A program made the position numbers and the translations under genes. This document shows, piece by piece, positions 11,487 through 52,904 of a stretch of DNA of 60,000 bases. The DNA comes from Amphiscolops sp. MND2022 (lineage: Eukaryota): contig OZ076409.1 in the NCBI GenBank assembly GCA_964187785.1, forward strand, positions 29,514,001 to 29,574,000, in the 5' to 3' direction. Under the pieces are notes generated by a model, which saw only the letters and a program-made list of their open reading frames with translations, made no database searches and was not told the origin of the DNA. Position 1 is the stretch's first letter, and the number at the start of each line of letters is the position of its first letter.

Positions 11487-11551
11487 CTGAAAAAAGTTTC
11501 TCCTTGTTTACATTTTAATAAAAAGCATTAATGTAGAAATTTTCATCTTAC

Positions 11552-11896
11552 CTGTCCAAGTTAGAACATGGGACAAAGTCTTGGGATTTTCCAGAAGATC
11601 CAGTAAACAACCCAATGCAACAGTTTTGATTCTATCATGCGATGATTTGTTGACGGGTTTGTCAGAGTCACTCGCTCCCAAATTATTGATTTCTCCGGCA
11701 TTTTTGTCCAGCAAATCTAGAAGTAAAAATACGCCTTCTTGTTCGAGGAAGTAGCACTCGTTAGTGAAGGAACCGCATACACTGTTCCAGATGGCTTCTA
11801 TGGCTGCCAAAATTAGTCTGGTATAACCCAAACCCAGACAGATCTTTCTTGAATCTATCTTCAGGGTGTTAGATAGCACTTGAACTCCTTCTTGGC
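11552..11896 (-). CDS. CFAP69: CFAP69 exon 6
   Basis: ttgcag|GC ... ACAG|gtaag; GQEGVQVL...GLGYTRL...YFLEQEGVFLLLDLL...LGCLLDLLENPKT. Confidence 0.88.
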
Positions 11897-12284
11897 CTGC
11901 AATCAAAATTAAATAAACATCAGTGCAGTGTTTCTCATGGTTGATAAACATTTGTAATAAGTATTTCAATCGGTATGAGACATATTATGGATTGCGAGTC
12001 GTTTCAAGCTGGAATTCCATTTTTTACACCGAGTAAAACTCAAATTTACTTTGCTGTAAAGCAAAGGTCTTTTAGCTTTTGTTTTAACAACTCAAAAATT
12101 CACCTAAAAATTTTAATGAAACCAGTCTCGAATCCATTCAACTATTTTCGAGATGACATCTTGCTAATGTCTCTTTGTGAAAAATCGGCCAGACTTCGTT
12201 TTTTTTTCAGCGAGACAGCGCTTTTATTGATGAAACAACAAACAAGTTTCAATTATTCGTACGCCGAGAACTTCGCCTGTGTAA

Positions 12285-13658: not shown

Positions 13659-14096
13659 TTTAGCACTAACGGTGCTACAGGTGAAGAGGCAACTCATTTT
13701 CACAAAGTTTCAGAGTGAAAAACAATCCTCATACGTCGAAGTGATCACGTTCATCCGAAAGCGGATCTTCTTTACCATCATTCGTACAGCGCTCATAGCT
13801 TTGACAGGCAAAAGGAAAAATATCATGAGGACCACACCAATCAATGAATGTGACATCAACATCATGGCCAGCACCCTCTAACATGAAATTTGAATCGATC
13901 GTCTTAACAGAAGAAATATCCTCTCTATTAAAAGAGAACCAAAGAGATCAGGAAGTGATTCTCAGTTTCAACATTCAACTTTTATTGCATCAAACCCAAG
14001 CCACGAGACCTGGAGACGTTCTCCAGCTTAAATCTATCCCGAACTCGATCCACATTTTCACCAGATGTGAATTTGTGTTTGATATTCGATACCGGA
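13659..14096 (+). pseudogene. 5'-truncated CRE-like (RLE-type) non-LTR retrotransposon 3' end plus 3' UTR
   Basis: Starts FSTNGATGEEATHFHK, then after a frameshift SEKQSSYVEVITFIRKRIFFTIIRTALIALTGKR...DINI*, matching from memory the CRE-clade C-terminal pattern FST.GG.G.EA..F.K...EK....Y..V...IR.R.SF...R.....LRG.R. Begins exactly after the 9-bp repeat. Confidence 0.6.
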
Positions 14097-17000
14097 TCTA
14101 GGTGCGGGGGGGAAACCCCAACAAATATATTGGAGGATTCGGGTAGGGTCCTGAATCCGAGTTCAGTGCTGCCAGCTTTCGTTAAGAAAATTTGGATAGG
14201 ATTCGGGATCTCGTGATCTAACCATAGGATTTTAAAGTTGGAGCGGCCCCCACCAGATTTTCCGAAAATTAGCGCCCCCCACCGGGTTCCATACCCCGGA
14301 AAATTTTTTTCTGGCCACACGGGCGACCGTTAGGGGGTCATTTTAGGGGTAAAATTCATATTGGGCCACATAACTTTTTTTCTGTTGATTTAAAACTTTG
14401 GGACCCTGCTAAAAGTTTCTTGACCGTGTTGCAGGGGCCCCGGAGGTCCAAACCAAATTTTTCTAGCTTGAAGCTATCTCCAAGTACCCCCCCGCCCAAA
14501 ACGTTATTTTTCCGGAAACGCAGGTTTTTGACCCGGAAGGAGTCGTCTGAGCGCGGGGTCGTTAGTTGATGTATTGGGGACGGCCTTGAGACGAAGTGGG
14601 GGACATGCAGTTTGCCAACCCCAGTTTACCCCCCGGACGGGAAATGACCGTTATATGAGCGGGAAAAATGCCCCCTCCACGTTTTACCGCTATTTCCGGT
14701 GTGAAGGAGTGGGAGTAGCGCGTCGGGTGCCATATATCAAAAGTAGGTTTAAACAAGGACCTATCGGAAACATGTGGTTTGGGACCCCCTGGACCAACCC
14801 GTTAGCGGGAAATGGGGCTTCCGCCTCCTTTTTTTACTGCTAAAACCGTAAAATGGGCATTGAGGGGTAAATATCTCGTGAACGCGTGGAGCTACGGTGT
14901 CCATCACTACTACAAGGTTTCATACCCATGATATGGTGCCTCCAGGGGGGCAAACAGATTTCCGCTATCTATCGCCGTTACCGACTTGCCCCCCCAGCCT
15001 AACCGCTATGTGACCGGAAATGTCACTTTTTGAGCCCAAAGGGTCGGTCCCAGCCGGGGAACGTTAGGTAACTTATTGTAGTGCTAATTGAGACGAGCTG
15101 GGGGATATAGTTTCAGTCAACCCCCGTTACCCCTTAGGACCGGAAATGACCGTTATGTGGGTAAATTGGCATTTTTTGTACTTTTTGAAGGGCATTTAGA
15201 TGCGGAAGGAGTGGTAATAGGTGCTTGGACACTATATGAAGGAAGGGAGGACGTGAGGCGAGCATTCGGAAGTAACCGTTATGTTGACCCTAAAGTCCCC
15301 CTGGTACCGGAAGTGACCCGTAATGGTCGAATTTTGTGTTTAAAGGGTACAAATGTTTGGTGTTTTATGGATAACAGTACCTATTAGGTGTTTCGACGGT
15401 CTGCAGTCGTGAACATAGTCATGAAACCTTGTGGGGGGTAACTGTATATAGCACCGAAAGTCCAAACCGTTGGAGACAGGATACGTTTTTTGGTTTTAAA
15501 ATGTCTTTCGGCCTACTTTTGTCGACTATTATGGACTATTTTTGAAAAATAAAGTTTTTCCATATAGTTTCAGAGACTCCGAAACCTCAACCAACATAAC
15601 CGTTACCTTATGATAGCCTTTCAAGTTGGCCTGGTGTCAACTTGGAAGGGCTATCCTTCAAAAGTCATTAATCAAGTTTGTTTTTGAGTATGTTTGTTTT
15701 ACTTTAGAATCAATTAGAGCTTCAAGAAAATATTGCCAACGATAAAAACTATGTCGTGATGATTCCGTTATTAGAATAATAGTTAAAAAATTTTGATAAA
15801 GTTGATTTTTTACATTTCAAATCTGTCCTAAATGCCAGAAAACCTCTTTACCAAACAAATGGTATTGATTGAATTGTATAAAACAGCTAATAAAACTTCA
15901 AATTGAATATTACGTTTCATTATGGAAGCTGAAGCGTCATATTATAGATTCATTACTGTCAACGCCACATACTTTACATCAACGCCCACCGTCCGTAGGC
16001 ATGCCGAGGCATGCCTTTCGACGACGTATACCAAATTCCACCCACACAACACCCTCGAGCGCGGTAGCAGCTAGGTGGGCGGGGAAATTTCACCCCGTTT
16101 GTATTCGGCCGACGGGTAGGGTCCTGGCGGCCGACGATCCGCCTTAAGCTAGCGGTATGTAGCAGAAATTGCAAAAAAAAGACCTAAAATTTAATCTAAC
16201 CATTAGAATTTGCTCAAAATTTGCATGCGGCCCTCAAATCCTATTGCAAGACGAAGTTCCTGCTGACGCTAAGCGTTCTATAAATTTTATAAAAAGTTAT
16301 GGCCAATTTTTTGTTCAAAATTTCAATAATTTTGGGAAATTTCTAATTTTTCACCTAATATCTCGAAATGTGTTAATTTTTGGACTTTGACTGTGAAACA
16401 AGCTTGGAACCTTCATTTCGTGGCTGTGGCATTGCATTGAACACAAAAGATGTAAAGTTTTTACATTTTTCGAAAATTCGAGATTTTTGAATTTTTTTTC
16501 ACTACTATCAGTACCCCATATGTCAAAAACACATCAGAAAAAAATTTTTATTTGCTTTAAATTGGAAACCTTGGTATCCATGGTTTCTGTCGGAACCTAC
16601 TCGCTGCCAAACACCCAACAGTTTGCATCCAGTGTGAATTTAAAATTTTTTTCGAGGTCTTAGGTGTTTCACAAGGATTTCTCAACATGATTTTAATTTA
16701 CAAATTGGTCATTTTGAACACAATATTTTCATCGAGGCTTGTCGGCTATAGTCTTAATGTTATAGAACGGTCCCACTGGCAACGTAGGAACCATTTATAG
16801 TAATAGAAAATTTTAAAAAAATTTTTTCACCCGGTCTTCAGTCATTTTTCAGTCATTCGGAACTTAACTTAGAAAATTTTCGTCTCGAATACCCATTTTT
16901 GGTGAAGTCGAAATTTGAATTTCAGCACTTGAAGCAAAATTTTTTACTCTGACGTAACCAGTGGGGCTAATGATACTCAACAACACCGTTGGGACTGATA

Positions 17001-20000
17001 CCAGTGGCTCCAATAACATATGAGTCGGGATAAGACGTTATTCAGAGCAAAACCTCTAAATCGGAGTAAACATCTCGGAAGCCTGGGATCACAGTGAAAT
17101 GTGGGATCAACAAAAGTTTACATATTTTTGTCAATTACTATGTACACAGAGTGCATAGGATGAGTTTCAGCACTATAATGAGGTTTTTGAAGTAATCGGC
17201 CTGCTCAAAGGGGTGTATGAGACATTTTTTTCCCATATAGTACTGTATTTTCCAAAATTTTTAGCCCATTATCTCAAAAACCTAACTTCGCAAAATGCTT
17301 TCAATTACTTTATTCTAAGGTTAGAATATGAATGAACACTGTGGTTGATCAGAACCTCTCATTTTTTGTTTTCCGAAATAATACCTTCGCATGGGTTACA
17401 TTTATGGCAGAAAAGAAAGCAGAAGATAAAAAAAATACGCAATTTTGCTAAGATAGAAACGCAATGATTGTGCCTAAATACCCTTTAAAAACTTCTAACG
17501 CAACCTTATGGATCCAATATGATTGGAAATACCGTTCACAGTCCTCACATGTACTCTTTCTACAATCCAGACTGCACTTTTTGTGAAAATTTTACATGTA
17601 GCTTTAAACTGAATCTTGTGATAGCCTTTTAAGTTGGCCTTGTGTCAACTTGGGAAGGCTATCACCACAAAAAACTAAAAACAAAATTACCATTTGTTAA
17701 TTTGATTTTGCTGTCGATGCCTATTTTCGTAATTCGATCCTATCGTTAGATCCTTCCATCAGGTCAGCTAACGATTGCTTTCAGTGTTTGATAAGAATGT
17801 ATGAACATGAAGAAAATTCTCTTTTTTTTGTTTACAAAAAATGAAAACAAATAATTAAAAAAACCTAATTGGAATAATTGAAACCACTAGGAAGTATAAC
17901 GTCTATCTTTTTGACCGTTATCATCCCCAGCCATCCCCAACGCCCTCGCAATGTATGTCCATATTACAACGCCGCGTCACATAACGTTCCGACGCCCATA
18001 GTCTGTGGGCATGCCGAGGCATGCCCTTCGACGACGTATGCCAAATGAGCCTTTCCCGCACTCTGGAGTGCGGTAGCGGCTAGGTGGGCGGGGATTTCAC
18101 CCCAAAAAAAACTAGAGCGGCGGGTAGGGTCCTGCCGCGAACTCCCAAAACAGCTAACGCTTATAAGAAAAAGCACACCCTCAACAGCCGATTTTAAAAT
18201 CTAACCGTACGATTCTTCTCATTTTTTGCATGCGGCCCTAATTTGCCCATACGAGACGAAGTTCCTGCTGACGTTAAGCCCTAAAAACATTATTAAAAAA
18301 GTTATGGCCAATTTTTGGTCCCCATTAGATGTAAAAATGATGAAATTTTTCATAAAAGGGCAAATATCTCAAAATGCAATAATTTTTGGAAATTGACTGT
18401 GAAACAAGCTTGGAACCTTAATTTCGTGGCTGTGGCATTGCACTGAACACAAAAGATGTAAAGTTTTTACATTTTTTGAAAATTTGAGATTTTTGAAATT
18501 TTTTTCACTACTATCAGTACCATATATGTCAAAAACACCTCAGAAAATAATTTTTATTTGCTTTAACTTGGAAACCTTGGTATCCATGGTTTCTGTCGGA
18601 ACCTACTCGCAGCCAAACACCCAACAGTTTGCATCCATTGTTAAAATAAAAATTTTTTCTGGGTCATAAGCGTTTCACAAGGATTTCTCAACTTAGTATT
18701 AATTTACAAAATGGTCATTTTGAACACAAGATTTTCATCGAGGCTTGTCGGCTATAGCCTTAATGTTCTAGAACGGTCCCACTGGCAACGTAGGAACCAT
18801 TTATAGTAATAGAAAGTTTTAAAAAAATATTTTCACCCGGTCTTCAGTCATTTTTCAGTCATTCGGAACTTAACTTAGAAAAATTTCGTCTCAAAAACCC
18901 ATTTTTCGTCAGGTCGAAATTTGAAATTCAGCTTTTGAAGCACAAATATGCACTCTGACGTAACCAGTGGGGCCAATGATACTCAACAACACCATTGAGA
19001 CTGGTATCAGTGGCTCCAATAACATATGAGCCGCGATAAGACGTTATTTTTAACAAAACTGTTCAAATGAAGTAAACATCTCGGAACCCTTGGATCACAG
19101 TGAATGTTGATTTGAACAAAAATTTACTCTTTTTTGTCAATCACTATGTACACAGAATGCTTAGGGTGAGTTTCAGCACTACTATGAGGATTTTGAAGGA
19201 ATCGGGTTGCTCAAGGCGTGGTATGAGACACTTTTGTCTCATATACTACTGCTTTTTTGAATAACTTTTCGCCCAATATCTCACAAAGCAAACCTAAAAA
19301 ATACTTTCCGATACTTAATTCACTTCTTAGAATATAATTGAACATTGTGGTTGATCAGAAACTCTCAACTCTTATGTTTTTCAATAAATATCCCTTCGCA
19401 TGTGTCCCATTTGTATCATTAAAAAAACCTGAAGCTAAAAAATACGCTATTTTGCTAAGATAGAATTACAAGTATTGTAACCAATATATCTTTAATTACT
19501 TCTAACGCCACCTTACGGACCCAAGATGATTGAAAATACTGTTCACAAGGATCACATGTGCTCTTTCTGCGATCTAGGCTGCTCATTTTTTGCTTAGTTC
19601 ACATGTAGCTGTTAACTGTATCTTGTGATAGCCTTTTAAGTTGGCCTTGTGTCAACTTGGCAAGGCTATCACCACAAAAAACTATGAACAAAATTACTTC
19701 TCGTTTATAAGACAATGCTGTTGATGATTAACTTCGTGATTATATCCCACCGTTAGTACCATCCAGCAGGTCAGATAACAATTGCATTCAGTCTTCGATA
19801 AAAACCTATGAAATCAAAAACATTTTTTATCGTTTTTTTTTCTAAAAGTAGAATTTTATTTTATTACCAACTTAAAAAACTCTAACTTTCACATTCGTTA
19901 CCGTTATCAGCCACACCAATCGCGTGCGGCCTCGCAGTGTTAGTAGTACAACGCCACATAGCGTTCCGACGCCCACCGTCTGTGGGCATGCCGAGGCATG

Positions 20001-23000
20001 CCCTTCGACGACGTATGGCAAATTCGCCCCTGCGAGGTCACTACCGCGGTAGCAGCTAGGTGGGCGGTAGGTTTCCCGTAGTCAAAAAAAAAATTGCAGG
20101 CCGGGGTAGGGGCCCTGGCCGAGGCAAAATACCATAGAAAAGGTACCAAATTATGTGAGTTTAGAAAATTGAGCCATACAAATTCTCTGAAAATTGCTGT
20201 GTGTACCCTATCGCCCAATCTAAGAACTTTTTCCTGCTGACGTTTTGCCCTCCAAATGTTACTAATATGACTTTTTGAAAAATTTATCTCTGGTTTTTCA
20301 TCAAAAATAGTGATTTTGGCAATTTTTGTGAAATATCTCTGATTGCATTAATTTTTGGACGTTGACTGTGAAACAAGCTCGGAACCATCATTTCGTGACC
20401 ATGGCAATGCACTAAACACAAAAGATGTAGAGTTTTTAAATTTTTTGAAAATTTGACATTTTAAAATTTTTTTCACTACTATCAGTACCATATATGTCAA
20501 AATAACCTCAGAAAAATTTTTTTATTTTATTTAATTTAGAATCCTTGCTATCCATGGTTTCTGTTAGTATCTACTCGCTGCCAGAGACTCAACAGTTAGC
20601 ATCGAATCTGAAATTAAAAATTTTTTCGAGGTCATAGGTGTTTCACAAGGATTTCACAACATAGTCTTGTTTTACAAATAGGTCATTTACAACATCATAT
20701 TTTCATCGAGGCATGTCGGATATAGTCTTATTGCTCACGAACGGTCCTACTGGCAACGTAATAACCATTTATAGAAATATAAAGTTTTTAAAAAATCTTT
20801 TCACCCGTTCTTCAGACATTTTTCAGACATTCGGAACTTAACTTAGAAAATTTCGTCTCAAAAACCCATTTTTCGTCAGGTCGAAATTTGAAATTCAGCT
20901 TTTGAAGCACAAATATGCACTCTGACGTAACCAGTAGGGCCAATGATACTCAACAACACCATTGAAACTGGTATCAGTCGCTCCAAAAACATATGAGCCG
21001 TGATAAGACGTTTTTTTCAACAATACTGTTCAATTGATGTAAACATCGCGGAAGCCTTGGATTACAGTGAAAGTTGATTTGAACAAAAATTTACTCTTTT
21101 TTGTCAATCACTATGTAGACAGAATGCGTAGGGTAAGTTTCAGCACTAATATGAAGATTTTGAAGGAATCGGGTTGCTCAAGGCGTGGTATGAGACACTT
21201 TTTTCTCATATACTAGTGTTTTTCAAAACCTTTTCGTTAAATATCTCGAAAAGCAAACATTAAAAAATACTTTCTGATATCTAATTTAATTCCTAGAATA
21301 TAAATGAATCATGTGGTTGATCAGAAACTCTCTACTTTAATGTTTCCAGAAAAAAATCCCTTCCCATGTTTTATATCTGTAGCAGTAAAAAAAGTAGACG
21401 CTAAAAAATACGCTATTTTGCTAAGATTGAATTGCAATTGTTTAGCTTTAAAACTCTTTTAATACTTCTAACGCCACCTTAAGGACTCAAGATGATTGAA
21501 AATGTCAATCACAATGCTGACATGTAGTCTTTCTACGATCCTGGCTGGACAGATTTTGATTATTTTTCAAGTACCTGTTAACTGAATCTCGTGATAGCCT
21601 TCTAAGTTGACCTTCTGCGTCAACTTGAGAAGGCTATCACTAAAATAAACTAAATTCCGATTTGTTTGTTTGTTCCTAACGTCTTTTGGTACGATCGTCT
21701 TACGGTTAGTTGGTTAAACCAGGTCGCTTATACTTCCACAATTTTCGACCACCGTCCGTGTATTCGGTTCACACGACTTTACATTTTCAGTCGTTTGTTT
21801 TCGATAACTATCACAATGTACTGCCATTAGCGCAAAATTCATACTAGTACTTGGTTGGTTGAAATACTTAAACAACTGTTTCCATAGTTATTCGCGGTGA
21901 TGGTACAATCCGCGCGCCTACATACCTACGGCGTCTTGTCACTACAACGCCACATAGGGAAACAACGCCCATAGTCCGTAGGCATGCCGAGGCATGCCTT
22001 TCGACGACGCGCGCCAAATCTATGCGCGCCCGCACTTGTGCGGTAGCTGCTAGGTGGGCGGGGAAATTTCACCCCGTTTGTATTCGGCCGACGGGTAGGG
22101 TCCTGGCGGCCGACGATCCGCCTTAAGCTAGCGGTATGTAGCAGAAATTGCAAAAAAAAGACCTAAAATTTAATCTAACCATTAGAATTTGCTCAAAATT
22201 TGCATGCGGCCCTCAAATCCTATTGCAAGACGAAGTTCCTGCTGACGCTAAGCGTTCTATAAACTTTATAAAAAGTTATGGCCAATTTTTTGTTCTAAAT
22301 TTCAACATTTTTGGGAAATTTCTAATTTTTCACTTAATATCTCAAAATGTGTTAATTTTTGGACTTTGACTGTGAAACAAGCTTGGAACCTTCATTTCGT
22401 GGCTGTGGCATTGCACTGAACACAAAAGATGTAAAGTTTTTACATTTTTCGAAAATTCGAGATTTTTGAATTTTTTTTCACTACTATCAGTACCCCATAT
22501 GTCAAAAACACATCAGAAAAAAATTTTTATTTGCTTTATATTGGAAACCTTGGTATCCATGGTTACTGTCGGAACCTATTCGCAGCCAAACACCCAACAG
22601 TTTGCATCCAATGTGAAAATAAAAATTTTTTTTGGGTCATAAGCGTTTCACATGGATTTTACAACTTAGTTTTAATTTACAAGTTGGTCATTTTGAACAC
22701 AATATTTTCATCGAGGCTTGTCGGCTATAGCCTTAATGTTCTAGAACGGTCATACTGGCAACGTAGGAACCATTTATAGCAATAGAAAGTTTTAAAAAAA
22801 TATTTTCACCTGGTCTTCAGTCATTTTTCAGTCATTCGGAACTTAACTTAGAAAAATTTCGACCAAAATACCCATTTTTTGTCAGGTCGAAAAATGAAAT
22901 TAAGATTTTTAAGCAAAATTATTAACTCTGACGTAACCCATGGGGCCTATGATACTCAAAACAACGATTGACACTGGTATCAATGGCTCCCATAACATAT

Positions 23001-26000
23001 GAGTCGCGATAAGACGTTATTTTGAGCAATACGTCTCAATTGAGGTAAAGATCTCGCAAGCCAGCGATCACTGTGAAATGTGATTTCATCAAAAATTTAC
23101 TCGTTTTTGTCAATCACTATGTGCACAGAGTGCGTAGGATGAGTTTCAGCACTATAATGAGGTTTTTCATGTAATCGGCCTGCTCAAGGGTGTGTATGAG
23201 ACATTTTTTTCCCATATAGTACTATATTTTCCAAAATTTTTAGCCCATTATCTCAAAAACCTAACTTCGCAAAATGCTTTCAACTACTTTATTCTAAGGT
23301 TAGAATATGAATGAACACTGTGGTTGATCAGACTCTCTCAATTTTTTTTGTTTTCCGAAAAAATACCTTCGCATGGGTTACATTTATGGCAGAAGAGAAA
23401 GCAGAAGATAAAAAATACGCTATTTTGCTAAGATAGAAACGCGATGATTGTGCCTAAATACCCTTTAAATACTTCTAACGCAACCTTATGGACCCAATAT
23501 GATTGGAAATACCGTTCACAGTCCTCACATGTATTCTTTCTACAATCCAGACTGCACATTTTTTGAAAATTTTACATGTAGCTTTAAACTGAATCTTGTG
23601 ATAGCCTTTTAAGTTGACCTTGTGTCAACTTGGGAAGGCTATCACCACCAAAAACTATAAACAAAACTACCATTTGTTAATCGGATTTTGCTGTCGATGC
23701 CTATTTTCGTGATTGTATACTACCGTTAGTATCTTCCATCATGTCACCTGACGATAGCATGCAGAGTTTGAAAAAATACCTATGAACTCGAAGACATTTT
23801 TGTTTATTATTAGGTAAATAATTTTATTTCTAAATAATAAATAACAACTTCTAACCTTTGAAAACTATCACATTTGTTTTCTCTTCCGTTATCAGTCTTC
23901 CGTCACCCATGATCTGAGCCTATGTCATGACCCTGTGATTTGTATAACAACGCCACATACCAACATCAACGCCCACCGTCTGTGGGCATGCCGAGGCATG
24001 CCCTTCGACGACGTATGCCAAATGAGCCTTACCCGCACTCTGGAGTGCGGTAGCAGCTAGGTGGGCGGTAGGTTTCCCGTAGTCAAAAAAAAATTGCAGG
24101 CCGGGGTAGGGGCCCTGGCCGAGGCAAAATACCATAGAAAAGGTACCAAATTATGTGAGTTTAGAAAATTGAGCCATACAAATTCTCTGAAAATTGCTGT
24201 GTGTACCCTATCGCCCAATCTAAGAACTTTTTCCTGCTGACGTTTTGCTCTCCAAATGTTACTAATATGACTTTTTGAAATTTTTATCTCTGTTTTTTCA
24301 TCAAAAATAGTGATTTAAGCAAATTTTGTGAAATATCTCTGATTGCATTAATTTTTGGGCGTTGACTGTGAAACAAGCTCGGAACCTTCATTTCGTGGCT
24401 GTGGCAATGCACTGAACACAAAAGATGTAAGGTATTTAATTTTTTTGAAAATTCGACATTTTTGAAATTTTACTCACTACTATCAGTCAAAATATGTCAA
24501 AAACACCTCAGAAAAAAACTTTTATTTGCTTTAAAAAAGAAACCTTGCTGTCCATGGTTTCTGTCGGAACCTACTCGCTGCCAAACGCTCAACAGTTTGC
24601 ATCAAAAGTGAAATGAAAAATTTTTTCGAGGTCATTGATGTATCACAAGGATTTCACAACTTAGTTTCAATTTACAAATTGGTCATTTTGAACACAATAT
24701 TTTTATCGAGGCTTGTCAGCTATAGCCATAATGCTCAAGAACGGTCCTACTGGCAACGTAAGAACCATTTATTGTAATAGAAAATTTTAAAAAAATATTT
24801 TCACCCGGTCTACAGTCATTTTTCACACATTCGGAACTTAACTTAGAAAATTTTTGTCTCAAATACCCATTTTTGGTTAGGTCGAAAATTCAACTTCAGT
24901 TTTTGAAGCAAAATAAATCACTCTGACGCAACCAGTGGCACACATGATACTCGAAAACACGAATGTGACTGGTACCAATGGCACCAATATCATATGAGCA
25001 GCGATAAGACGTTGTTTTTAGCAATGCTTCTCAATTGAAGTAAACATCTCGGAAGAATGGTATCAGAGAGAAAAGTGATTTCATCAAAAATTTACTCATT
25101 TTTGTCAATCACTATGTGCACAGGATGCGTAGGGTGAGTTTCAGCACTGATATGAGCTTTTTAAAGAAATCGGACTGCTCAAGGTGTGGTATGAGACAAT
25201 TTTTTCCCATATACTACTGTATTTCCCAAAACGTTTAGCCCATTATCTCGAAAACCTAGCTTGGCAAAATACTTTCTGTTACTTTATTCAAAGATTTAAA
25301 AATATATAAACACTCTGGTTATTCAGAATCCCTCAACTGTTATGTTTTTCAAAAAACATTCCCTCCGCATGTGTTACATTTGTAGCATGAAAAAAAGCAA
25401 AATCCTAAAAATACATATTTTTACAAGATAGATTCGCAATGATTGTACCTAAAAATTTAATAAACACTTCTGAGGCCACGTTAAGTACTCAAATTGATTG
25501 AATAAACTATTCAAAATGCTGACATGTGCTCTTTCTACGATCCAGGCTGAACCATTTTTGCACATTTTACATTTGGCTGTTAACTGAATCTTGTGATAGC
25601 CTTTCAAGTTGGCCTTGTGTCAACTTAGAAAGGCTATCACCACAAAAAAATATAAACAAAGGTACTTTTCCATTTTAGGGATATTGCGATCGATAAATAT
25701 TTTCGTGAATCTATACTACCATTAGTACCTTCCATAAGGTCATCTGACCATTGCATGCAACATTTGAAAAAAAAACATATGAACTCGAAGACATTCTCCT
25801 GTATTTTTTGTTGGAAAAAGTACAAATAAATAACAAATTTTACAATTCTAACCTTTTAAAACTACAGTTTTTACTTTCTTTACCGTTATCAGTGGCATCC
25901 ATCACCCTATGTCATGGCCCCGTTATTAGTACAACGCCACATAGCGTTACGACGCCCACCGTCTGTGGGCATGCCGAGGCATGCCCTTCGACGACGTATG

Positions 26001-29000
26001 GCAAATCCAAATTGGCGCGCGGTCCATTTACGCGCGCAACTTTTTGGCTAGGTGGGCGGGGAAATTTCACCCCGTTTGTATTCGGCCGACGGGTAGGGTC
26101 CTGGCGGCCGACGATCCGCCTTAAGCTAGCGGTATGTAGCAGAAATTGCAAAAAAAAGACCTAAAATTTAATCTAACCATTAGAATTTGCTCAAAATTTG
26201 CATGCGGCCCTCAAATCCTATTGCAAGACGAAGTTCCTGCTGACGCTAAGCGTTCTATAAATTTTATAAAAAGTTATGGCCAATTTTTTGTTCAAAATTT
26301 CAATAATTTTGGGAAATTTCTAATTTTTCACCTAATATCTCGAAATGTGTTAATTTTTGGACTTTGACTGTGAAACAAGCTTGGAACCTTCATTTCGTGG
26401 CTGTGGCATTGCATTGAACACAAAAGATGTAAAGTTTTTACATTTTTCGAAAATTCGAGATTTTTGAATTTTTTTTCACTACTATCAGTACCCCATATGT
26501 CAAAAACACATCAGAAAAAAATTTTTATTTGCTTTAAATTGGAAACCTTGGTATCCATGGTTTCTGTCGGAACCTACTCGCTGCCAAACACCCAACAGTT
26601 TGCATCCAGTGTGAATTTAAAATTTTTTTCGAGGTCTTAGGTGTTTCACAAGGATTTCTCAACATGATTTTAATTTACAAATTGGTCATTTTGAACACAA
26701 TATTTTCATCGAGGCTTGTCGGCTATAGTCTTAATGTTATAGAACGGTCCCACTGGCAACGTAGGAACCATTTATAGTAATAGAAAATTTTAAAAAAATT
26801 TTTTCACCCGGTCTTCAGTCATTTTTCAGTCATTCGGAACTTAACTTAGAAAATTTTCGTCTCGAATACCCATTTTTGGTGAAGTCGAAATTTGAATTTC
26901 AGCACTTGAAGCAAAATTTTTTACTCTGACGTAACCAGTGGGGCTAATGATACTCAACAACACCGTTGGGACTGATACCAGTGGCTCCAATAACATATGA
27001 GTCGGGATAAGACGTTATTCAGAGCAAAACCTCTAAATCGGAGTAAACATCTCGGAAGCCTGGGATCACAGTGAAATGTGGGATCAACAAAAGTTTACAT
27101 ATTTTTGTCAATTACTATGTACACAGAGTGCATAGGATGAGTTTCAGCACTATAATGAGGTTTTTGAAGTAATCGGCCTGCTCAAAGGGGTGTATGAGAC
27201 ATTTTTTTCCCATATAGTACTGTATTTTCCAAAATTTTTAGCCCATTATCTCAAAAACCTAACTTCGCAAAATGCTTTCAATTACTTTATTCTAAGGTTA
27301 GAATATGAATGAACACTGTGGTTGATCAGAACCTCTCATTTTTTGTTTTCCGAAATAATACCTTCGCATGGGTTACATTTATGGCAGAAAAGAAAGCAGA
27401 AGATAAAAAAAATACGCAATTTTGCTAAGATAGAAACGCAATGATTGTGCCTAAATACCCTTTAAAAACTTCTAACGCAACCTTATGGATCCAATATGAT
27501 TGGAAATACCGTTCACAGTCCTCACATGTACTCTTTCTACAATCCAGACTGCACTTTTTGTGAAAATTTTACATGTAGCTTTAAACTGAATCTTGTGATA
27601 GCCTTTTAAGTTGGCCTTGTGTCAACTTGGGAAGGCTATCACCACAAAAAACTAAAAACAAAATTACCATTTGTTAATTTGATTTTGCTGTCGATGCCTA
27701 TTTTCGTAATTCGATCCTATCGTTAGATCCTTCCATCAGGTCAGCTAACGATTGCTTTCAGTGTTTGATAAGAATGTATGAACATGAAGAAAATTCTCTT
27801 TTTTTTGTTTACAAAAAATGAAAACAAATAATTAAAAAAACCTAATTGGAATAATTGAAACCACTAGGAAGTATAACGTCTATCTTTTTGACCGTTATCA
27901 TCCCCAGCCATCCCCAACGCCCTCGCAATGTATGTCCATATTACAACGCCGCGTCACATAACGTTCCGACGCCCATAGTCTGTGGGCATGCCGAGGCATG
28001 CCCTTCGACGACGTATGCCAAATGAGCCTTTCCCGCACTCTGGAGTGCGGTAGCGGCTAGGTGGGCGGGGATTTCACCCCAAAAAAAACTAGAGCGGCGG
28101 GTAGGGTCCTGCCGCGAACTCCCAAAACAGCTATCGCTTATAAGAAAAAGCACCCCCTCAACAGCCGATTTTAAAATCTAACCGTACGATTCTTCTCATT
28201 TTTTGCATGCGGCCCTAATTTTCCCATACGAGACGAAGTTCCTGCTGACGTTAAGCCCTAAAAACATTATAAAAAAAGTTATGGCCAATTTTTGGTCCCC
28301 ATTAGATGTAAAAATCATGAAATTTTTCATAAAAGGGCAAATATCTCTAAATGCAATAATTTTTCGATTTTGACTGTGAAACAAGCTCGGAACCTTCATT
28401 TCGTGACCGTGGCAATGCACTAAGCACAAAAGACGTAAACTTTTAACATTTTTTGAAAATTCGACAAACTCGATTTTTTTTTTCACTACTATCAGTACCT
28501 CATATGTCAAAAACACCTCTGAAAAAGTTTTTTATTTGCTTTAAATTGGAAACCTTGGTATTCATGGTTTCTGATGGAACCTACTCGCTTCCACAGACTC
28601 AACAGTGAGCATCAATTGTGAAATTAAATTTTTTTTCGATGTCATAAGTGTTTCACAAGGTTTTCATAACTTAGTAATATATTACAAATTGATCATTTTC
28701 AACATAATATTTTTGTCGAGACATGTCGGATATAGTCTAAATGCTCACGAACGGTCCTACTGGCAACGTAGGAACCATTTATATTAAAAAAAGTATTTTA
28801 AAAAATTTTTCACCTGGTCTTCAGTCATTTTTCAGACATTCGGAACTTAACTTAGAAAATTTTCGTTTCAAATACCCAATTTTGGTAAAGTCGAAATTTG
28901 AAATTCAGCTTTTGAAGCTAAATTATTTACTCTGACGTAACCAGTGGGGCTAATGATACTCAACAACACAGTTGAGACTGTTACCAGTGGCTCCAATGAC

Positions 29001-30034
29001 ATATGAACCGCGATAAGACGTTATTCAGAGCAAAACCCAAACATCGAAGTAAACATCTCGGAAGCCTGGGATCACAAGGAGAAGTGATTACCTCAAAAAA
29101 TTACTATTTTTTGTCAATTACTATGTACACAGTATGCGTTGGGCAAGTTTCATTACTAACATGAGGGTTTTGAAGAAATTCGGTTGCTCAAGGGGTGGTA
29201 TGGGACACAATTCTCTCATATACAACTAATTTTCCACAAACTTTTGGAGTATTATCTCTAAACGATAACTTAACTAAACTCTTTTTCATACCTATTTCAG
29301 TTATTAGGATATAGATGAACCCTGTTGTTGATAAGAAACCCTCAAATGTTATGTTTTTAAAAAAATTACCTTCGCATGTGTTACATTTGTAGCATGACAA
29401 AAAGCAGACGTCTAAAAATACGCAATTTTACAAAGATAGGATTGCGATTATTGTACCCAAAAAATTTTAACTGCTTCTAACGCCCTCTTACGTACTCAAA
29501 ATGATTGAAAAAAACCGTTTACAATGCGCACATTAACTTTTTCTACGTTCCAGGATGCACAACTTTAGCACATTTTACATGTAGCTGTTAACTGATTCTT
29601 GTGATAGACTTTCAAGTTGGCCTTGTGTCAACTTGGCAAGGCTATCACCACCAAAAACTATGAACAAAATTACTTCTCGTTTATAAGACAATGCTGTTGA
29701 TGATTAACTTCGTGATTATATCCCACCGTTAGTACCATCCAGCAGGTCAGATAACAATTGCATTCAGTCTTCGATGAAAACCTATGAAATCAAAAACATT
29801 TTTTATCGTTTTTTTTCTAAAAGTAGAATTTTATTTTATTACCAACTTAAATAACTCTAACTTTCACATTCGTTACCGTTATCAGCCACACCAATCGCGT
29901 GCAGCCTCGCAGTGTTAGTAGTACTACGCCACATAGCGTTCCGACGCCCACCGTCTGTGGGCATGCCGAGGCATGCCCTTCGACGACGTATGGCAAATTC
30001 GCCCCTGCGAGGTCACTACCGCGGTAGCAGCTAG
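14097..30034 (+). repeat. Head-to-tail array of eight ~2-kb non-coding Helitron/HUH-like units joined at CTAG
   Basis: CTAG junctions at 14098, 16071, 18080, 20056, 22050, 24057, 26048, 28057, 30031; unit lengths 1973, 2009, 1976, 1994, 2007, 1991, 2009, 1974. Array starts A|TCTAGGTG and ends hairpin-GCTAG|T. Every unit carries the same hairpin set. Confidence 0.9.
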
Positions 30035-30356
30035 TTGGATTTTGACGTTATATCCGAACTATATTGCGTTTTTCTAAGGAGGAGGCGGAGGTCCGAAAAC
30101 AGTTTTTCATGAAAACGTCCTACGCGACATTTCAAATCTGCGCTTTTTGAGCCTTACATATAGCACCGACTTTAGACGTTCCCGTCTTGTTTAAAATATA
30201 AAGTCGCGTTCTCCGGATTCTGAAAACATCCATCCCATAATCATAGTTTCCATTGATGTTATGAGATTTAGTTTGCTTAGTTAACTTTCAATTTTTGAGC
30301 TTTCAATTCGTGACTTCTACTGATATACCGGAATAATCCTGTGACAACATATTTAC

Positions 30357-30680
30357 CCAATGCTTCTTTGCGATCCGTGTTGTTTTCCATGACAGATGCT
30401 ATTGTATATAATATTTCGCAGCATATGTCCAGAGATATGAAAGACTCAGGTGGCAGGCTCGTTGTTTTGGGCTCGAACTCGTGAACACGAATTTTATCGA
30501 ATTCGTCTGTGAGTTTGGTCAGCTCAGCCAGATACTTCTCCATCAAACCGTTTTCGAGCAGGGTTTCTGCTACCCACTCATTGTCAGATGCTAGAATCTT
30601 TCCCAGTAGTCGCATTACGTATTTGGTCTGTGCTAACTTAGTTCCTCTGCCCCCGGTTGCGTATACACTGTTGCCATGGC
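30357..30680 (-). CDS. CFAP69: CFAP69 exon 5
   Basis: tttttag|GC ... TTGG|gtaaat; GHGNSVYATGGRG...DRKEALG, splicing in frame to exon 6 (RKEALG-QEGV). Confidence 0.85.
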
Positions 30681-30896
30681 CTAAAAAGAATGGGGCTATC
30701 ATCAAAACGAGATGTTGCTTTTACCGAAAGTAAATGTTTCCGATTTAACCAACAATAATTTCAAATTGAACTGAAATATTTCATGCTAAGCAAAAAGCTG
30801 TTTTCAATCGTTTAGTTTTCAATCAATTTAGGTTTCAAGAATCCCCTTGAACGCCCTTGTTGTGAATCAATTGAATTTGAACATGAAATATGATAC

Positions 30897-35682: not shown

Positions 35683-36113
35683 GTGAGCTATTTTTCATTG
35701 CATTGGATTTCAGCAAATCGATTGTTAATTAAGCATGAATTGATAGCTTGTGAAATTGTTCACCAAAAGATCAGGTTGATTGATTTAGAAGCTGTTAATT
35801 GAGTGCAACAATTTGATTTTGCTCAAATAACAAATTGAGGTGAAGTTTCATGTGGAGGTTATCAAACCCCTGATATCATAGAGCCAGTGGAAGAAAGCGA
35901 GAAATGAAAAATTTTCGAATTTTTCCATTAGTTCCATTCCAAAATAGTTTTTAGAATAAAGTTGTCATTTCATTGTTCTTTGGACCTGTTAGAAAAAGAG
36001 TTTGTGTGAAATGACTTGCTTCTTTCTACTCAGATCATTTTTTCTTCTCCTTTTTCAACTCCTTTTTCAATAAGTAGATATTTAAAGGCCTATGCATGTT
36101 TTCTGTACTTTAG

Positions 36114-36381
36114 GGAAAACGATAAAGCTTATGAAAGATGGATGCCACATGTCAATCTCATTTTTCCTTTCATAGAAAGGCCCAACGATGATTTTGGACA
36201 GGAAGTTGCTATGATCAGAAAGTCTTTCGAAGAATGCAATGTGAGAAGGTTTCAAATGAAATTCTGCGACCAATCTGTTGGTTTCTTCGAAATGAAGAAA
36301 AATTTTACTATATGGTTGAAGCCCTTGCCTTTATCCGTGCCAGAGATGATGTCTTCTACTGTAGCTGTACCGGAGACTATT
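36114..36381 (+). CDS. 2H phosphoesterase gene, exon 2
   Basis: tttag|G; ENDKAYERWMPHVNLIFPF (first catalytic Hx[TSN] motif) ... TIWLKP; donor ATT|gtgag. Confidence 0.8.
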
Positions 36382-37028
36382 GTGAGTTGTGAATTGTATG
36401 CATATGAAACACAAAATTTTAAAACCTTGAGTACCGCGTTTCCGTTCTTTCGATAATCCTTAGACTTTCGCGCCGCTGAACTCTAATTTTACTGTTTTCC
36501 ATCTTTCAAGTAAAGCAAACGTTCAACGGACTTTTTGATAATAGTTTCTCTAATGTCTCTAGTATTTCAAAACAGGGTCGGCAAGTTTGAAAAAAAAACG
36601 TTTTGAACACAGCGGAAAAAAAACATGATTAAAACATGTGAAAAGAACAGATGTTTTTTTCGTTTGTTTGTAGTTGTTCTAGAATGCTATCGCTGATGCT
36701 TAATATATGCTCAGTTTGCTGATATGGTGGACAATCTGGTTTCGGCGGTACCAAGTTCAGCCGGATTGGAGCGACATTTTTCGACAATGGGGATGAGTTA
36801 CGGGACTCTGAGAAAGCTGTGTTTTTTGTATAAACAACTAAATAAGTGATGTGATCTGTAAAGATTGGGAAAAAATTTTTTCGGAAAAAAAACTTTTTCA
36901 AAAAAAAACTTCAATGCACGAAAAATACACAATTTTACCCAACCCTGATTCAAAACCCTTACAAAAAGAACTGATTTTGAGTCGGTCACACCCTTTTATT
37001 TCCAAACACTTTATTGTGAATTTTTCAG

Positions 37029-37697
37029 CAAGTTCAGCTAGAAAAGAAACTTACCCAAAACGAAGAGGCCATTCAGAAAAACAAAAAGAAGCAAAGTACT
37101 GATAACGAATGGGTTGAGAAATACTGTGTGGATCCGTTTGGAACTTTCGATGAACATGCTATGGATGTGTCCCTGTTTGATTTACACTCTGAAGGTGATC
37201 ACTTATACACATATGGAGCTTCTTTATTTAATTTCTCTAAGAAGAAATACGCCACATGGGGCTATCGTGGTACAAACCAAGTTCGCAACAGAACGAAACC
37301 CAAAGAAAACATGCCAGTTAGAAGCAGAACACCTGGAGAACTTGATTTTCAACTTATTGAAGAATCTGAAACTTCCCTGCAGGACTATTTGGACGAACGT
37401 TTCGAAGATCATGATTTATTGTGTGTGAAAAATTTGCCCGATTTGATGCGACTTCAGGCAAGTTTGAGACGAGCATTTCCAAAATGCGATGATTTGGATA
37501 CGATCAGTAGTTCTGGCTTCCAGCCTCATTTGACTCTGGGACAGTTCAAGAAGAGAAACATAGACACAGTTGTTCAGACTATCCAGAAGGATCTCTTCAA
37601 AGGAGCTGAAGAGTTCACTATAGACTCTATACATATCATTACCAGACATTCATACGATGATAAGTTTGAAGTTAGACATACTGTTGATCTAATGTAG
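37029..37697 (+). CDS. 2H phosphoesterase gene, exon 3 (terminal)
   Basis: tttcag|CAA in frame with ORF 37128-37697; LMRLQASLRRAFPKCDD...GFQPHLTLGQF (second HxT motif)...FTIDSIHIITR. Confidence 0.8.
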   Translation, partial: QVQLEKKLTQNEEAIQKNKKKQSTDNEWVEKYCVDPFGTFDEHAMDVSLFDLHSEGDHLYTYGASLFNFSKKKYATWGYRGTNQVRNRTKPKENMPVRSRTPGELDFQLIEESETSLQDYLDERFEDHDLLCVKNLPDLMRLQASLRRAFPKCDDLDTISSSGFQPHLTLGQFKKRNIDTVVQTIQKDLFKGAEEFTIDSIHIITRHSYDDKFEVRHTVDLM

Positions 37698-38190: not shown

Positions 38191-41100
38191 TCAATTTGTA
38201 ACATGTCACCAGGAAAAAGTTGCTCGGATGATATAGGTTGTAATGGCGGGTTTAGATGTTTTTTAACCACTCTTTTCTGAGTCAAGCGTGAAAGACAATT
38301 TTTCACGTAGTCTATCAAAAGGTTCTGGAAAACCCGGGAAATAGAACCTCTTGCGAAATTCTTTGGCTGTCCTCACTATTCGTATATGTCCTCCTGTGGG
38401 TGAATTACGGATTCTATACACAACTTCTTTCCTCAAATGCTTAGGGATGCAAACTTGAAGATTTGAAACTTTACCAACATCAAAGAAATTCCGGAAAAGA
38501 GTTCCTTTTCGAAGCTGCAATCCGTCTAAGTGTTTATAATACTTTTTCAATTCGAAGGAGGCGTACGTTAAATCATCAGTACACCCTTTTTAATCCAGTC
38601 AATGACTTTTCTTATTACTGGGTCTTTTCGCTGTTCTTCTTGGATGTCAAGTTTTTGCGTATTAGAACTATTGACTTCGAGGTAATTCAAAGGGTCGTCT
38701 TGCTGTATCGAGTTGCACTCGGGAGCCCTTTTCGCACAAAGTTCTGCAATTGAATCTTCTGATGCCGATTTTAGGAGGTCATTTAAATTTGGGATCAGCT
38801 GTAGCAGCTGAGCATTTGATTGAAGTGTTTCTATTAGTTCTGGCGACAAGAGTTTGCTTGTTGTATCATCATGTGAGTTATGTTCGTTTGAATCAATCAA
38901 CATTGAAGCATCCGGTGTTTTAGCTTTCATATCTATCTCAATGTTTCATCGGTATTGAATATAAGAGTTGAAGCTCTAAACTTTGTGTTGGGTCAGTTTG
39001 CATTCATGATAGAAAATCTGTTGCTGCATTTGCGCGACCTAATTTATGCGCTAGAACTATATTGTATGCATTTACCCCGTCCATAAAATTCCACAATGCT
39101 GGATGTAATGATTTTGACTAGAGAAAACTCGTCAAACTTTTATCTGATAAAAATGATTACTGGCTTTTCTGCTCCCCAAATGAAGTGTGAAAAATACTCC
39201 AATGCAAAATAAAGTGTCAGAAATTGCTTACAATAAGTTGACATTTTGAGTTGACTTGTATTGAACAATTGTGATACAAAGGATACTGGTGCATACGCTT
39301 GCTTTTTTGTTCCGTCTTTTTGTTCTAGATAGTCTTCAATCATTGAAACAAAATCACTACTGTAGTAACTTGCGTCGCACAGAATCATACTGTTGACCAG
39401 GTTTTGCTAATCTCAGTGTAGTTTTTGTTGCTTGAAGTAAGTTTGTCTTAATTTCATCGAAGCTTCTAAGATGTTCATCGTCTATTATGAATTCTACATC
39501 TTTTCTGAGTAATTTGTACTAAGACATTAGGTTTTGCGCTAGGTTCGGCATGAAATTTCGAAAGAACAAGGTGAATCCAACAAGTCTTTTCACTTGTTTC
39601 ATAGTTGCCGGTACTTTTTGCACATGACGGAGTCAATGTGCCTTGCAGTCCAGCTAAGAAAGTTTTTTTTCCACTATAGTCAACTTCATAATGAGCGCTT
39701 TTTAGAATAAAGCCAAAACCCCAGAGATTCGAACCTGCAGCCTCCCGATTGCACGGCATAAGTGTTGACCACTGTGCCATAGGGACGTTTATGAACAAAG
39801 TTGAACTGTTGAATATCTACGCATGCGATTAAAATAATATATATACGCATATTAAAATAATCGATGTCTTCGTCATGTGTTGCGAAGCACCGCTTCGCCT
39901 CTGTGTATAGTTTTCAGAAACTTCTCTATTTTTTTCTGTTTCCGGTTTGAGACCTTGTGGAGTTATGGTATTGCCGAGAAAAGTGATTGATTTCATTCCG
40001 AATTCACACTTGTGCGGTGTTAACCTCAATCCTGATTTTCGCAAGCAATCAAATATTTGACTGAGTGTTGGAATCATGTGTGTTCAAATTATTCTTCTCC
40101 ACATTCAATGTCATCCATGAAGTGTGTACATAAATTTGCTGCCAAACATGAATCAAGATAATTTCAGACAAATGAGCTAAACACTGTCACTGATTTGTTC
40201 AAAACTTGAGCTAATCTTGTATAGGCATAAGTTCGCGAAGCGAAATTGGATTACAGTAATTGGACTGATAAGGGGTCAGCCATTTGTACACAGTTATCAC
40301 TGTAATCCTTGCGAAGAAGGTGATTAACTCTTCTCAAATCAATCAAAATCCTCAATTTTCCTGACGGTTTCCTTTGTGCAAGGATTGGGCTACTATATTC
40401 AGAGTTTGGTAATAAGGTGACAATGCCATAATATTGCATGAGTGCTAGTTCCACTAATTTTTCTCGCAAGTGTATTGGTGTGGGAAGACATTGCACATAA
40501 ACTGGTAAATCTTGCGCAGGAGTAAGTTTTACTTTCAGTTCCGTATTGTATCCAACATCAAATCTGTGTTTTGCAAGAATGTCCTAATCTTCAACTAAAA
40601 GTTTTTGTATCTCTGTAATTTGGTCTGAATTCATTGCTGATTTGGACCAGTCAAACTGTTGCAGAAATTTTTCCGTATCTGCAGTACTCTTTATCGGGTC
40701 CAGTGTATCACTCGTAATTCTGTTAAATGATCATAAATTTTTCGTTGGACTGGCGGCAACTTTTCTGGATTTTGACAAGTTTCAGGTTTTGGGAACCCAA
40801 TTTTGTCATATTCAGGCGGAGGTCTTTTGGGTTGATTTTTGGCGTCATTTTTACCCGTCCAAATTATTTGATTAACTCCATTCAAAACCGCCGTCTTTCA
40901 TTTTATCTAATGCTAATAATTCCGGACCAATTTCGTTTAAGTCTTTCTCCTCTTGCGGGGAAAATTTGAAAGACTGCTATTGGTTTGTTTTTGGGAAGCG
41001 TAATCACATGATCATTTAAGTTGATAGCCAGAACTTGCACTGCATTATTTTTCCTCACTTTAACAACCGCTGATGAAAGTTTCAAGTTTGTGGTGTCTTC

Positions 41101-43916: not shown

Positions 43917-44699
43917 GTCAATTTTGATGACTTAACATTGATTCCATACGTTGCGAGAGAGCGTAACATACGTTATAAGAGCTGCCTCTCCAAAGTCGAG
44001 TTATTTTTGGGCGAAAGCAGGAATAATATCGAAATCTGAATTATTGAACTTTTTTTAATTCACTTTTTGACGTGATTCCGAGTACCTACTGAAAAATTGA
44101 GATTCTTTGTTCGGCAGTGAGTATAAGCGTGAAATTTGAATTTCTCAAGCTGCTGACAATTCGTTTCTCGTACGATTGAACGAGCGAGTGGTAATTATGC
44201 ATTCGTACGCCGAATTCATTGAGATGGAGCGAGCGAATGTTAGTAATAATGCTTTCGTACTCCGAGTTATTGAGATGAAGCGAACGAGTGTTAATTATTC
44301 GTTCGCCGAGAGCTTCGCCTGCATTCAAATGCGAGTGCGAAACTTCGTCTACGCTTAGTAGTTATATTTTCTTTAGTCCGAGAAGAATTGAAGGTGATGT
44401 AAACTGGTCGAGTGACTAATTGTGCTCTATATAAATAAGATATGTTTGTATTATTGAACCTGAAAGCCTAAAAGCAGAAATATTACGGTGCCTCACAGGG
44501 AACTGTTTTTTAGCGTCCCAAACTGCAACTGAAATTTTCCGGGTCGATTTATTTAGGATCGAATTTAACAGCACTATAGCAATGGTATAATATGAATGAA
44601 ATTTCCACTTCTTTCGATCCAGGAAAAATCAAATTCAATTCAATCCTAGATAATTTTGCACATTTTTTGATTCTAAATAATTCGACTCTTGTGCAGCAA

Positions 44700-52876: not shown

Positions 52877-52904
52877 GTCAATTTTGATGACTTAACATTG
52901 ATTC

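Follow-up and report, generated by a model that had tools for sequence, protein, structure and literature searches.

What is the hairpin that stands at the head of every unit in a tandem array of Amphiscolops sp., and what would act on it? The window, the whole stretch of 60,000 nucleotides that we analysed, carries eight such units. We give about even chances to the answer that they are copies of a non-autonomous element mobilised by an HUH enzyme, and that the left-end hairpin is the likely recognition structure of a rolling-circle transposase.

Units, junctions and edges of the array

The array and its flanks are laid out as follows (units are denoted u1 to u8):

14098..30034, + strand: array of eight head-to-tail non-coding units, 1973-2009 nt each, with CTAG at both edges
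Unit bounds: u1 14102-16074, u2 to 18083, u3 to 20059, u4 to 22053, u5 to 24060, u6 to 26051, u7 to 28060, u8 to 30034
14098..14101, + strand: left-edge CTAG, a putative target tetranucleotide or, with the preceding T, a candidate Helitron-type TC start
30031..30035, + strand: right edge, where T and an unrelated flank come after the terminal CTAG
30277..30720, - strand: CFAP69 coding frame on one flank (profile 417-527)
11508-11984: CFAP69 frame on the other flank (profile 511-584)

Because the flanking frames match these two stretches of the profile, the array most likely sits inside an intron of CFAP69, a cilia gene, and antisense to it; the coding frames on both sides mark the locus as eukaryotic. 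The longest frame in each unit spans 88-114 aa; for shuffled sequence the median is 83 aa. Gaps in the aligned core were of 1-2 nt in 38 of 39 cases with no 3-base rhythm, and a Pfam search of 40 of the 65 array frames of at least 55 aa gave no match. Comparison of the units showed that u2 and u7 are the same across 2009 nt and that the eight units are mosaics, hence ordinary recombination also shaped the array. The following structures were found within the units:

14108..14119, + strand: first head hairpin of u1, a G-run/C-run stem whose loop varies; every unit head folds an equivalent
14135..14158, + strand: second head hairpin, u1 type, 9 pairs, fixed loop
16105..16134, + strand: second head hairpin, u2 type (also u5 22084-22113 and u7 26082-26111), in which 7 pairs follow an A.G mismatch at pair 5
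18117..18138, + strand: second head hairpin, u3 type (also u8 28094-28115)
20099..20120, + strand: second head hairpin, u4 type (also u6 24099-24120), with G as the last base of the loop and the wobble shifted outward by one pair
15611..15655, + strand: long internal hairpin, in 8/8 units including u1, starting 433-465 nt before the unit end
15960..16029, + strand: conserved tail block in 8/8 units, in which short direct repeats spaced by 18-23 nt precede a perfect palindrome
18056..18073, + strand: GC-rich hairpin just 5' of the terminal CTAG of u2, like a Helitron 3' end

The long internal hairpin is carried even by u1, which is otherwise unrelated to the remaining units. The outer pair of the tail palindrome switches between A-T and G-C, and the palindrome ends 54-67 nt before the junction. 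The hairpin before CTAG varies in sequence by unit. On inspection the units showed no terminal inverted repeats, and inverted complementarity between the tail and some heads reached only 7-8 nt; no poly(A) end or long terminal repeat was seen at unit ends. A DDE transposon with a 4-bp target duplication was rejected on inspection, as the tail ends are variable and show no mirror image of the head. As a lead only, a tail-to-head helix of 7 pairs is predicted across 6 window junctions; it is broken in L001, a copy outside the window described below, and absent from the u1 head.

L001, a metagenome contig retrieved by the tail motif alone, is the sole outside copy and is likewise tandem. It shares the tail block, folds a counterpart of the first head hairpin and has a weak hairpin before its junction, as does u1; the junction reads CGAG, and the long internal hairpin was not seen in it. 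Three element patterns had no match in the viral collection, and a plasmid search gave no match to the element. Prokaryote genomes gave 20 matches to the tail palindrome, none with the loop motif within 200 nt downstream. A literature search that took in few subscription papers gave, judged by title, no element with the loop motif as a transposon hairpin; in one of the papers the motif stood in a primer.

Heads and tails have been reshuffled exactly at CTAG. The tetranucleotide is present once per junction (7/7), as well as at both array edges. The identity of u2 and u7 extends for 2082 nt rightward of the junction but only 5 nt leftward, and one head type was found after three different tails. 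The left flank has exactly 4 nt, CTAG, in common with 8/8 tails, and the right flank has 0 nt in common with any head. The window holds no empty site; from this one array we infer that CTAG is the target tetranucleotide. The 4-nt direct repeat at both edges may be target plus element end.

The same edges can also be read in canonical Helitron style, as A then TC on the left and as CTAG then T on the right. A Helitron of the HLE1 type would then start at the T before the left CTAG and insert between A and T, the hairpin would belong to its left terminal sequence, and the junctions would have lost five bases. The order of TC, hairpin, CTAG and T is that of canonical ends, CTAG preceded by a hairpin is found in 8/8 units in agreement with the HLE1 3' CTRR after a short hairpin, and available excerpts of the Helitron literature document tandems, including two different elements side by side. 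In those excerpts, however, known tandems and circles read CTAG then TC, and TC follows CTAG at 0/7 junctions here (three downstream head types) and not in L001. The end of L001, CGAG, is not CTRR, and the left ends described there for Xenopus and maize are TA-rich, as opposed to the G-rich double hairpins of the array. The one sequencing run listed (X1, share 0.11) gave 42 contigs, leaving the CFAP69 exon uncovered; no RNA run was among those listed, which carries no information on expression. A contig of this run with a u1-type head breaks at 14098, the C of CTAG and not the T, although this is one contig and may itself be tandem. Among the X1 contigs listed, which leave out 28 loose ends, there was no joint across the array and none of the A/T kind that the array edges permit. 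Taken as a whole, we consider a canonical Helitron unlikely.

A Crypton-like element would account for the tetranucleotide differently, with a tyrosine recombinase integrating circles through a 4-bp CTAG core and the hairpins serving as accessory or single-strand recombination sites. The direct repeat at both edges, its single presence per junction and the lack of terminal inverted repeats agree with this, and the consulted part of one source (PMC3212892) gives Cryptons terminal direct repeats of 4 or 6 bp and proposes a circular form for them. The usual recombinase site given in excerpts, in which a spacer of 6-8 bp separates two inverted repeats of 11-13 bp, was absent around CTAG on inspection and the tail side varies freely; the same part of PMC3212892 makes no mention of comparable terminal hairpins for Cryptons. 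We regard this explanation as distinctly unlikely.

The second head hairpin

The hairpin in question follows another one at the left end and occurs in 8/8 units as four stem types, all of them noticed before at these places in the sequence-only reading. That reading had put the hairpin about 30-60 nt after CTAG; the loop starts lie 41-42 nt past the junction in u1, u2, u3, u5, u7, u8 and L001 and 46-47 nt past it in u4 and u6. An 11-nt core pattern, allowing at most one mismatch, gave 9 matches, namely 8 exact ones (one per unit) and a stray at 1074. The chance mean was 0.26, and 9 matches were reached in 0/100 shuffles.

The stem had been called fully covarying and the loop invariant. The inner four pairs lie within a near-fixed 14-nt core, identical in 3/4 window types and L001, and the variable pairs are outward positions 5-8 only (5-9 in u1); the description therefore holds for the outer 4-5 pairs, with an A.G at pair 5 of u2, and not for the inner four. 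The loop is kept in all units and in L001, but the fold predicted for u4 and u6 closes a 4-nt loop. Stems measure 8, 8, 8 and 9 pairs in the four types. The first unpaired position outward is A.G in 5/5 types, followed by G.A in 3/5, and the bases at the hairpin foot are not the same across the five types, whereas CTAG does not vary within the window. As a general feature a G-quadruplex was rejected: four G-runs are present in the u2 and u3 types, and only three in u1, u4 and L001.

The eight copies count as four independent window types and, with L001, as five independent stems. At outward positions 5-8 the five types form 19/20 Watson-Crick pairs, the best of 120 arm permutations (next best 17, mean 8.4). 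Paired cells amounted to 75% against 57.1 +/- 4.8 in shuffles, a value matched in 0/500, while pairs changed on both sides (5 against 3.6 in shuffles, 109/500) were not above chance. The head of L001 carries a fifth, new stem type with 4/4 outer pairs and a loop offset of 41. As a control we used the viral collection, in which 35 core matches (28 distinct) lacked stem and junction; 4/4 outer pairs were found in 0/28 distinct chance matches. The alignment thus supports covariation of the outer stem beyond chance, including in L001, which was out of sample.

The earlier claim of selection on single-stranded structure is partly supported. According to the part of a study seen here (10.1101/2021.04.15.439925), a single template-switching event can produce perfect stems as well as compensatory changes of several bases, and since it can rewrite a stem in one step, paired changes alone are no proof of stepwise selection. 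It is conceivable, if improbable, that the core is conserved for its sequence, as a double-stranded binding site would be, and that the outer stems arose by template switching primed by the inner stem, the fold being unselected. The position of the wobble in the unchanged inner part fits this explanation. A neutral process would not, however, predict stems of 8, 8, 8 and 9 pairs or the A.G break in 5/5 types, and it leaves the fixed offset and the junction unexplained; moreover, switching may supply changes while selection retains them.

The G.T wobble had been offered as evidence for action on the + strand. Predicted folding is indeed better on the + strand in 5/5 types, by 2.1-3.7 kcal/mol. 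The wobble itself is weak strand evidence because the core is nearly fixed, and its retention may be sequence conservation. The tail hairpin and the first head hairpin showed no strand bias, and for the tail palindrome the - strand gives the slightly more stable fold in 7/9 copies, by at most 0.4 kcal/mol.

A wobble of this kind could also point to RNA: the unit would be transcribed, folded, processed and reverse-transcribed back, or the array would be one of small RNA genes. The G.U wobble, the tandem G.A mismatches and the tail palindrome are RNA-like, the folds are more stable under RNA parameters, and the loop matches the hnRNP A1 motif. Against this, Rfam gave no family at threshold in the window and three closer scans gave only sub-threshold matches, and the + strand is antisense to CFAP69. 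Unlike a gene array, both edges stop at CTAG and so split the conserved tail and head, and the unit ends have neither poly(A) nor a long terminal repeat. We think it very improbable that the hairpins act in RNA. Separately, a hammerhead core pattern matched the - strand at 8 places and was rejected, as on inspection stems I and II fail to form in the u2 and u3 matches.

The earlier proposal that the loop TAG pairs with CTA of the junction, as in IS200/IS605 guides, does borrow an IS608-like tetranucleotide layout (left site outside, right site inside, one at the circle junction; PMC3201880, in part), but it has next to no chance of being correct, for L001 alters the junction to CGAG and keeps the loop, any TAG pairs with the self-complementary CTAG and the loop simply repeats the junction TAGG, guides in the consulted part of PMC3201880 lie 5' of the hairpin foot, where the bases are not fixed here, and no exact loop complement of at least 4 bases, as a pseudoknot or guide partner, occupies a fixed unpaired place in all types.

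Proposed mechanism

Returning to the HUH-mobilised element, the hairpin fits a transposase or origin signal, as the sequence-only reading had suggested, because its distance from a precise rearrangement point is fixed; no partner protein was found in the array frames searched. The rolling-circle transposase is predicted to come from elsewhere in the genome. It would recognise the loop and the inner core by their sequence, but the outer stem by its shape. The nick would fall at the tetranucleotide, some 42 nt before the loop, the + strand being displaced. Copying would stop at the tail hairpin plus CTAG, and the copy, predicted to travel as single-stranded DNA, would insert after a C(T/G)AG. 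Because each element ends in the target motif, new copies would land on the ends of old ones or be carried along by read-through, and different families would come to be stacked in one array with a single CTAG at each junction. Judging from the 3' end and from the host, an enzyme of the Helitron lineage is most likely, but the layout of the ends is that of IS91.

A further possibility, which we hold as doubtful, is a group of single-strand transposons in eukaryotes, probably in animals, that would be distinct from both Helitrons and Replitrons. It would have an IS91-like two-hairpin origin, the second hairpin with a fixed loop and a free stem, and a C(T/G)AG target restored by the element at its own end, hence self-targeted stacking of unrelated 2-kb families into mixed arrays. 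Were there such a group, the ends would be direct bait for its transposase.

Left-end signals of eukaryotic rolling-circle elements have been described as variable and are poorly defined. Here five diverged families separate the fixed parts (loop, inner core, joint distance and closing A.G) from the outer stem, which is free to change, and so supply a design that binding and nicking assays could use directly. If CTAG is the target, a eukaryote would carry IS91-type ends missed by Helitron finders keyed on TC...CTRR, and an element landing on its own ends would turn mobile families into satellite-like arrays.

Comparison with known systems

Helentrons (Helitron2, HLE2, DINE-1) resemble the array in having structures at both ends and non-autonomous families with differing interiors; the array lacks their 11-18 nt subterminal inverted repeat and TT flanks, its left edge being without TT. 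The circovirus (CRESS) origin similarly has a conserved loop on a palindromic stem, nearby short direct repeats, a unit of about 2 kb and template exchange at the stem, but its nick falls in the loop, whereas the joint here is 41-47 nt upstream and no Rep or capsid is encoded. Replitrons are HUH elements of eukaryotes that have a hairpin at one end and short direct repeats as termini. They are reported from algae, plants and stramenopiles, the founding element has a 6-bp repeat, and in the excerpts at hand neither mixed-family arrays nor such a hairpin set is described. IS608 of the IS200/IS605 family has, in the part of the literature consulted, strand-asymmetric imperfect hairpins near both ends and a cleavage tetranucleotide that lies outside the element at the left end but within it at the right end; the array differs in its eukaryotic host and in lacking TnpA and a fixed guide at the hairpin foot.

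HLE1 Helitrons share the GC hairpin shortly before a terminal CTAG then T, non-autonomous copies and tandem arrays. Unlike them, the array has CTAG before its first unit, a G-rich double-hairpin left end, junctions without TC and a relative ending in CGAG. In Helraiser, as reported in the portion of PMC4778049 seen, a 3' hairpin with a swapped stem and its original loop retained about 90% of the activity, and a changed loop had an effect like that of removing the hairpin. The second head hairpin is similar in that its loop is fixed and its stem free.

The IS91 family consists of prokaryotic elements with a Y2 HUH TnpA, in contrast to the non-coding, eukaryotic array with its CTAG/CGAG tetranucleotide. 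In IS91 and IS801 the oriIS end carries two imperfect subterminal palindromes, with the target tetranucleotide adjoining, and the terIS end has one palindrome beside the cleavage tetranucleotide (PMC13181058, in part). The array shares this two-palindrome origin with a tetranucleotide outside it, the one-palindrome end and the lack of terminal inverted repeats, and according to the same kind of partial account IS91 also shows read-through of its end.

CFAP69 locus and organization of the array

A profile search matched five minus-strand frames in the window to CFAP69, and the locus is eukaryotic; its host may be an invertebrate animal. Two frames flanking 14.1-30.0 kb match successive portions of the CFAP69 profile, and the region between them is therefore most likely an intron, as judged from sequence. 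It holds eight tandem units (u1-u8, 14102-30034), each of 1973-2009 nt. The second and seventh are identical and the remaining pairs within u2-u8 are 70-89% alike, whereas u1 aligns with the others at 43-45% overall and has in common with them only the tail block, the internal hairpin and head motifs. Coding-potential tests detected no coding in the units, and an Rfam scan of them gave no family reaching threshold.

Unit features in 5' to 3' order
Left end: CTAG, then a short G/C hairpin
+41 to +47: second head hairpin, with a nearly fixed loop (fixed-loop hairpin)
About 200 nt, after the fixed-loop hairpin and before the interior: weak homology common to all heads
433-465 nt from the unit end: long internal hairpin, in the window units only
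Tail block: short direct repeats, then a palindrome that has an A-T/G-C switch of its own
After the tail palindrome: variable GC hairpin, then the terminal CTAG

Units are mosaic in their heads, interiors and tails. In alignment columns 300-1600 of u2-u8 the non-coding interior is on average 82% conserved, compared with 53-64% near the ends, the tail block excepted. The first unit is richer in GC than the others and contains a degenerate direct repeat (14487-14657 and 14989-15159, 70% over 174 nt). Its length falls in the common range although its interior is unrelated; the constant length hints at a size constraint, or at a common ancestor with a replaced interior. At six junctions of the array, tail bases at about -95 to -88 could pair with bases +1 to +7 of the next head (e.g. 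19970-19977 and 20059-20066), giving a helix of 7 pairs that spans the junction; L001, a metagenome contig carrying a tandem relative, has this helix disrupted, and the u1 head does not fit it. Instead of the internal hairpin of the window units, L001 has another long one (291-329, ~570 nt before its junction), and its upstream interior bears no relation to theirs.

Elsewhere in the window, 40921-46511 and 48821-55092 are two decayed gag/protease-bearing retroelement copies, 91-93% alike and both broken up by other repeats. Two further frames look retroelement-derived: 34-2490 (-; 818 aa, weak PNMA match) and 58061-59116 (+; 351 aa, without a Pfam match). Two 2'-5' RNA ligase family frames (36010-37697, +) lie upstream of CFAP69 on the opposite strand.

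Covariation in the fixed-loop hairpin

The sequence-only reading described four fully covarying stems around one loop. All four are present (14135-14158, 16105-16134, 18117-18138 and 20099-20120), and the 11-nt core pattern has one exact match in every unit, where chance would give a mean of 0.26 over the whole window. Counted outward from the loop, pairs 5-8 differ by type yet pair, whereas pairs 1-4, which include the G.T wobble, are conserved core; the independent types in the window number four, not eight. As an out-of-sample test, a metagenome collection was scanned with the tail palindrome only, yielding a single locus, L001, whose head directly follows its tail. Its loop lies 41 nt from the junction, and its stem is a fifth type with the core unchanged and four new outer pairs, all Watson-Crick. 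In the five types taken together, pairing holds at 19 of the 20 outer positions, the true arm pairing ranks best among 120 permutations, and the first unpaired position is always A.G. In an alignment test whose structure was derived from the same sequences, 75% of cells were paired versus 57.1 +/- 4.8 after shuffling (0/500 shuffles as high) and 32-50% with slid partners; pairs with changes in both arms were, counted by themselves, no more numerous than in shuffles (109/500). Among chance core matches in viral contigs, 0/28 distinct ones have four outer pairs. Covariation of the outer stem, drawn from five stems, is real.

In each of the five types the plus strand of this hairpin folds better, by 2.1-3.7 kcal/mol, as the proposed strand-specific wobble would have it, but the advantage comes mainly from that single conserved wobble. 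The internal hairpin favours the plus strand in five of seven copies (u7 omitted, as its sequence repeats u2); neither the tail palindrome nor the first head hairpin is strand-biased. Selection is likely, though not proven, to act on a single-stranded fold: template switching can also yield paired changes in one step (bioRxiv 2021.04.15.439925), and the circovirus origin is one place for which template exchange has been described (PMC2690592).

An IS200/605-like guide, with loop TAG pairing to junction CTA, is unsupported: TAG matches the junction automatically because CTAG is palindromic, L001 has CGAG with an unaltered loop (one copy, which could be a mutation), IS608 guides sit 5' of the hairpin foot (PMC3201880) whereas the foot bases here vary among types, and no exact loop partner was found at a fixed unpaired place. 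The loop repeats the TAGG spanning the junction, as opposed to guiding.

Joining of heads and tails at CTAG

The u2 and u7 heads are identical for 2082 nt rightward of the junction and 5 nt leftward. Heads of u2 type follow three different tails and those of u4 type two; every one of the eight tails shares exactly CTAG with the left flank, and no head has anything in common with the right flank. By these limits the joint is placed at CTAG to within a few bases, an indication of a site-specific reaction rather than of unequal crossing over. Since the dimer of u2 and the u3 head recurs across a junction as u7 and the u8 head, and unit interiors are mosaic, read-through or later recombination also acted.

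A 531-nt contig from sequencing run X1 matches 14098-14605 with 10 differences and stops where CTAG begins, at its C. The break is the end either of the contig or of its alignment, and the contig may represent a further tandem copy. Immediately before CTAG, the left flank (14083-14101) forms a weak hairpin faintly resembling a unit tail, a feature that perhaps made the site a target.

Relation to rolling-circle elements

The units most likely work like an IS91/Helitron-type rolling-circle element with the fixed-loop hairpin as part of its origin end, a reading that we put at about an even chance. Such an element would be nicked at the origin end, its strand displaced and then targeted; no enzyme, circle or empty site for the units was seen. 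The literature searched held no description of the end structure; a repeat database may already list it as unclassified.

Two papers give Helitron tandem context only (PMC12001565, PMC13085455). Replitrons (PMC10288648) and Cryptons (PMC3212892) have short direct repeats, to which CTAG could be equivalent. Neither the inverted repeats of 11-18 nt nor the TT sites that HLE2 elements need are present here. In canonical Helitrons TC marks the start and a hairpin plus CTRR the end, insertion is in AT, and circles and tandems are joined as CTAG-TC (PMC4778049, PMC5876387, PMC2267711, PMC11417382); the 3' end of the units fits and both array edges can be read as Helitron ends, but CTAG-TC occurs in 0/7 junctions. 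The origin end of IS91 and IS801 carries two imperfect palindromes and adjoins the target tetranucleotide, and their terminal tetranucleotide lies next to one palindrome (PMC13181058); the end layout of the units agrees feature by feature, whereas host and coding do not match. Because one defining feature failed in each, we file the units under neither canonical Helitrons nor IS91. The Helraiser 3' hairpin tolerates a stem swap and not a loop change (PMC4778049), and the fixed-loop hairpin resembles it, with loop kept and stem free as an evolutionary pattern.
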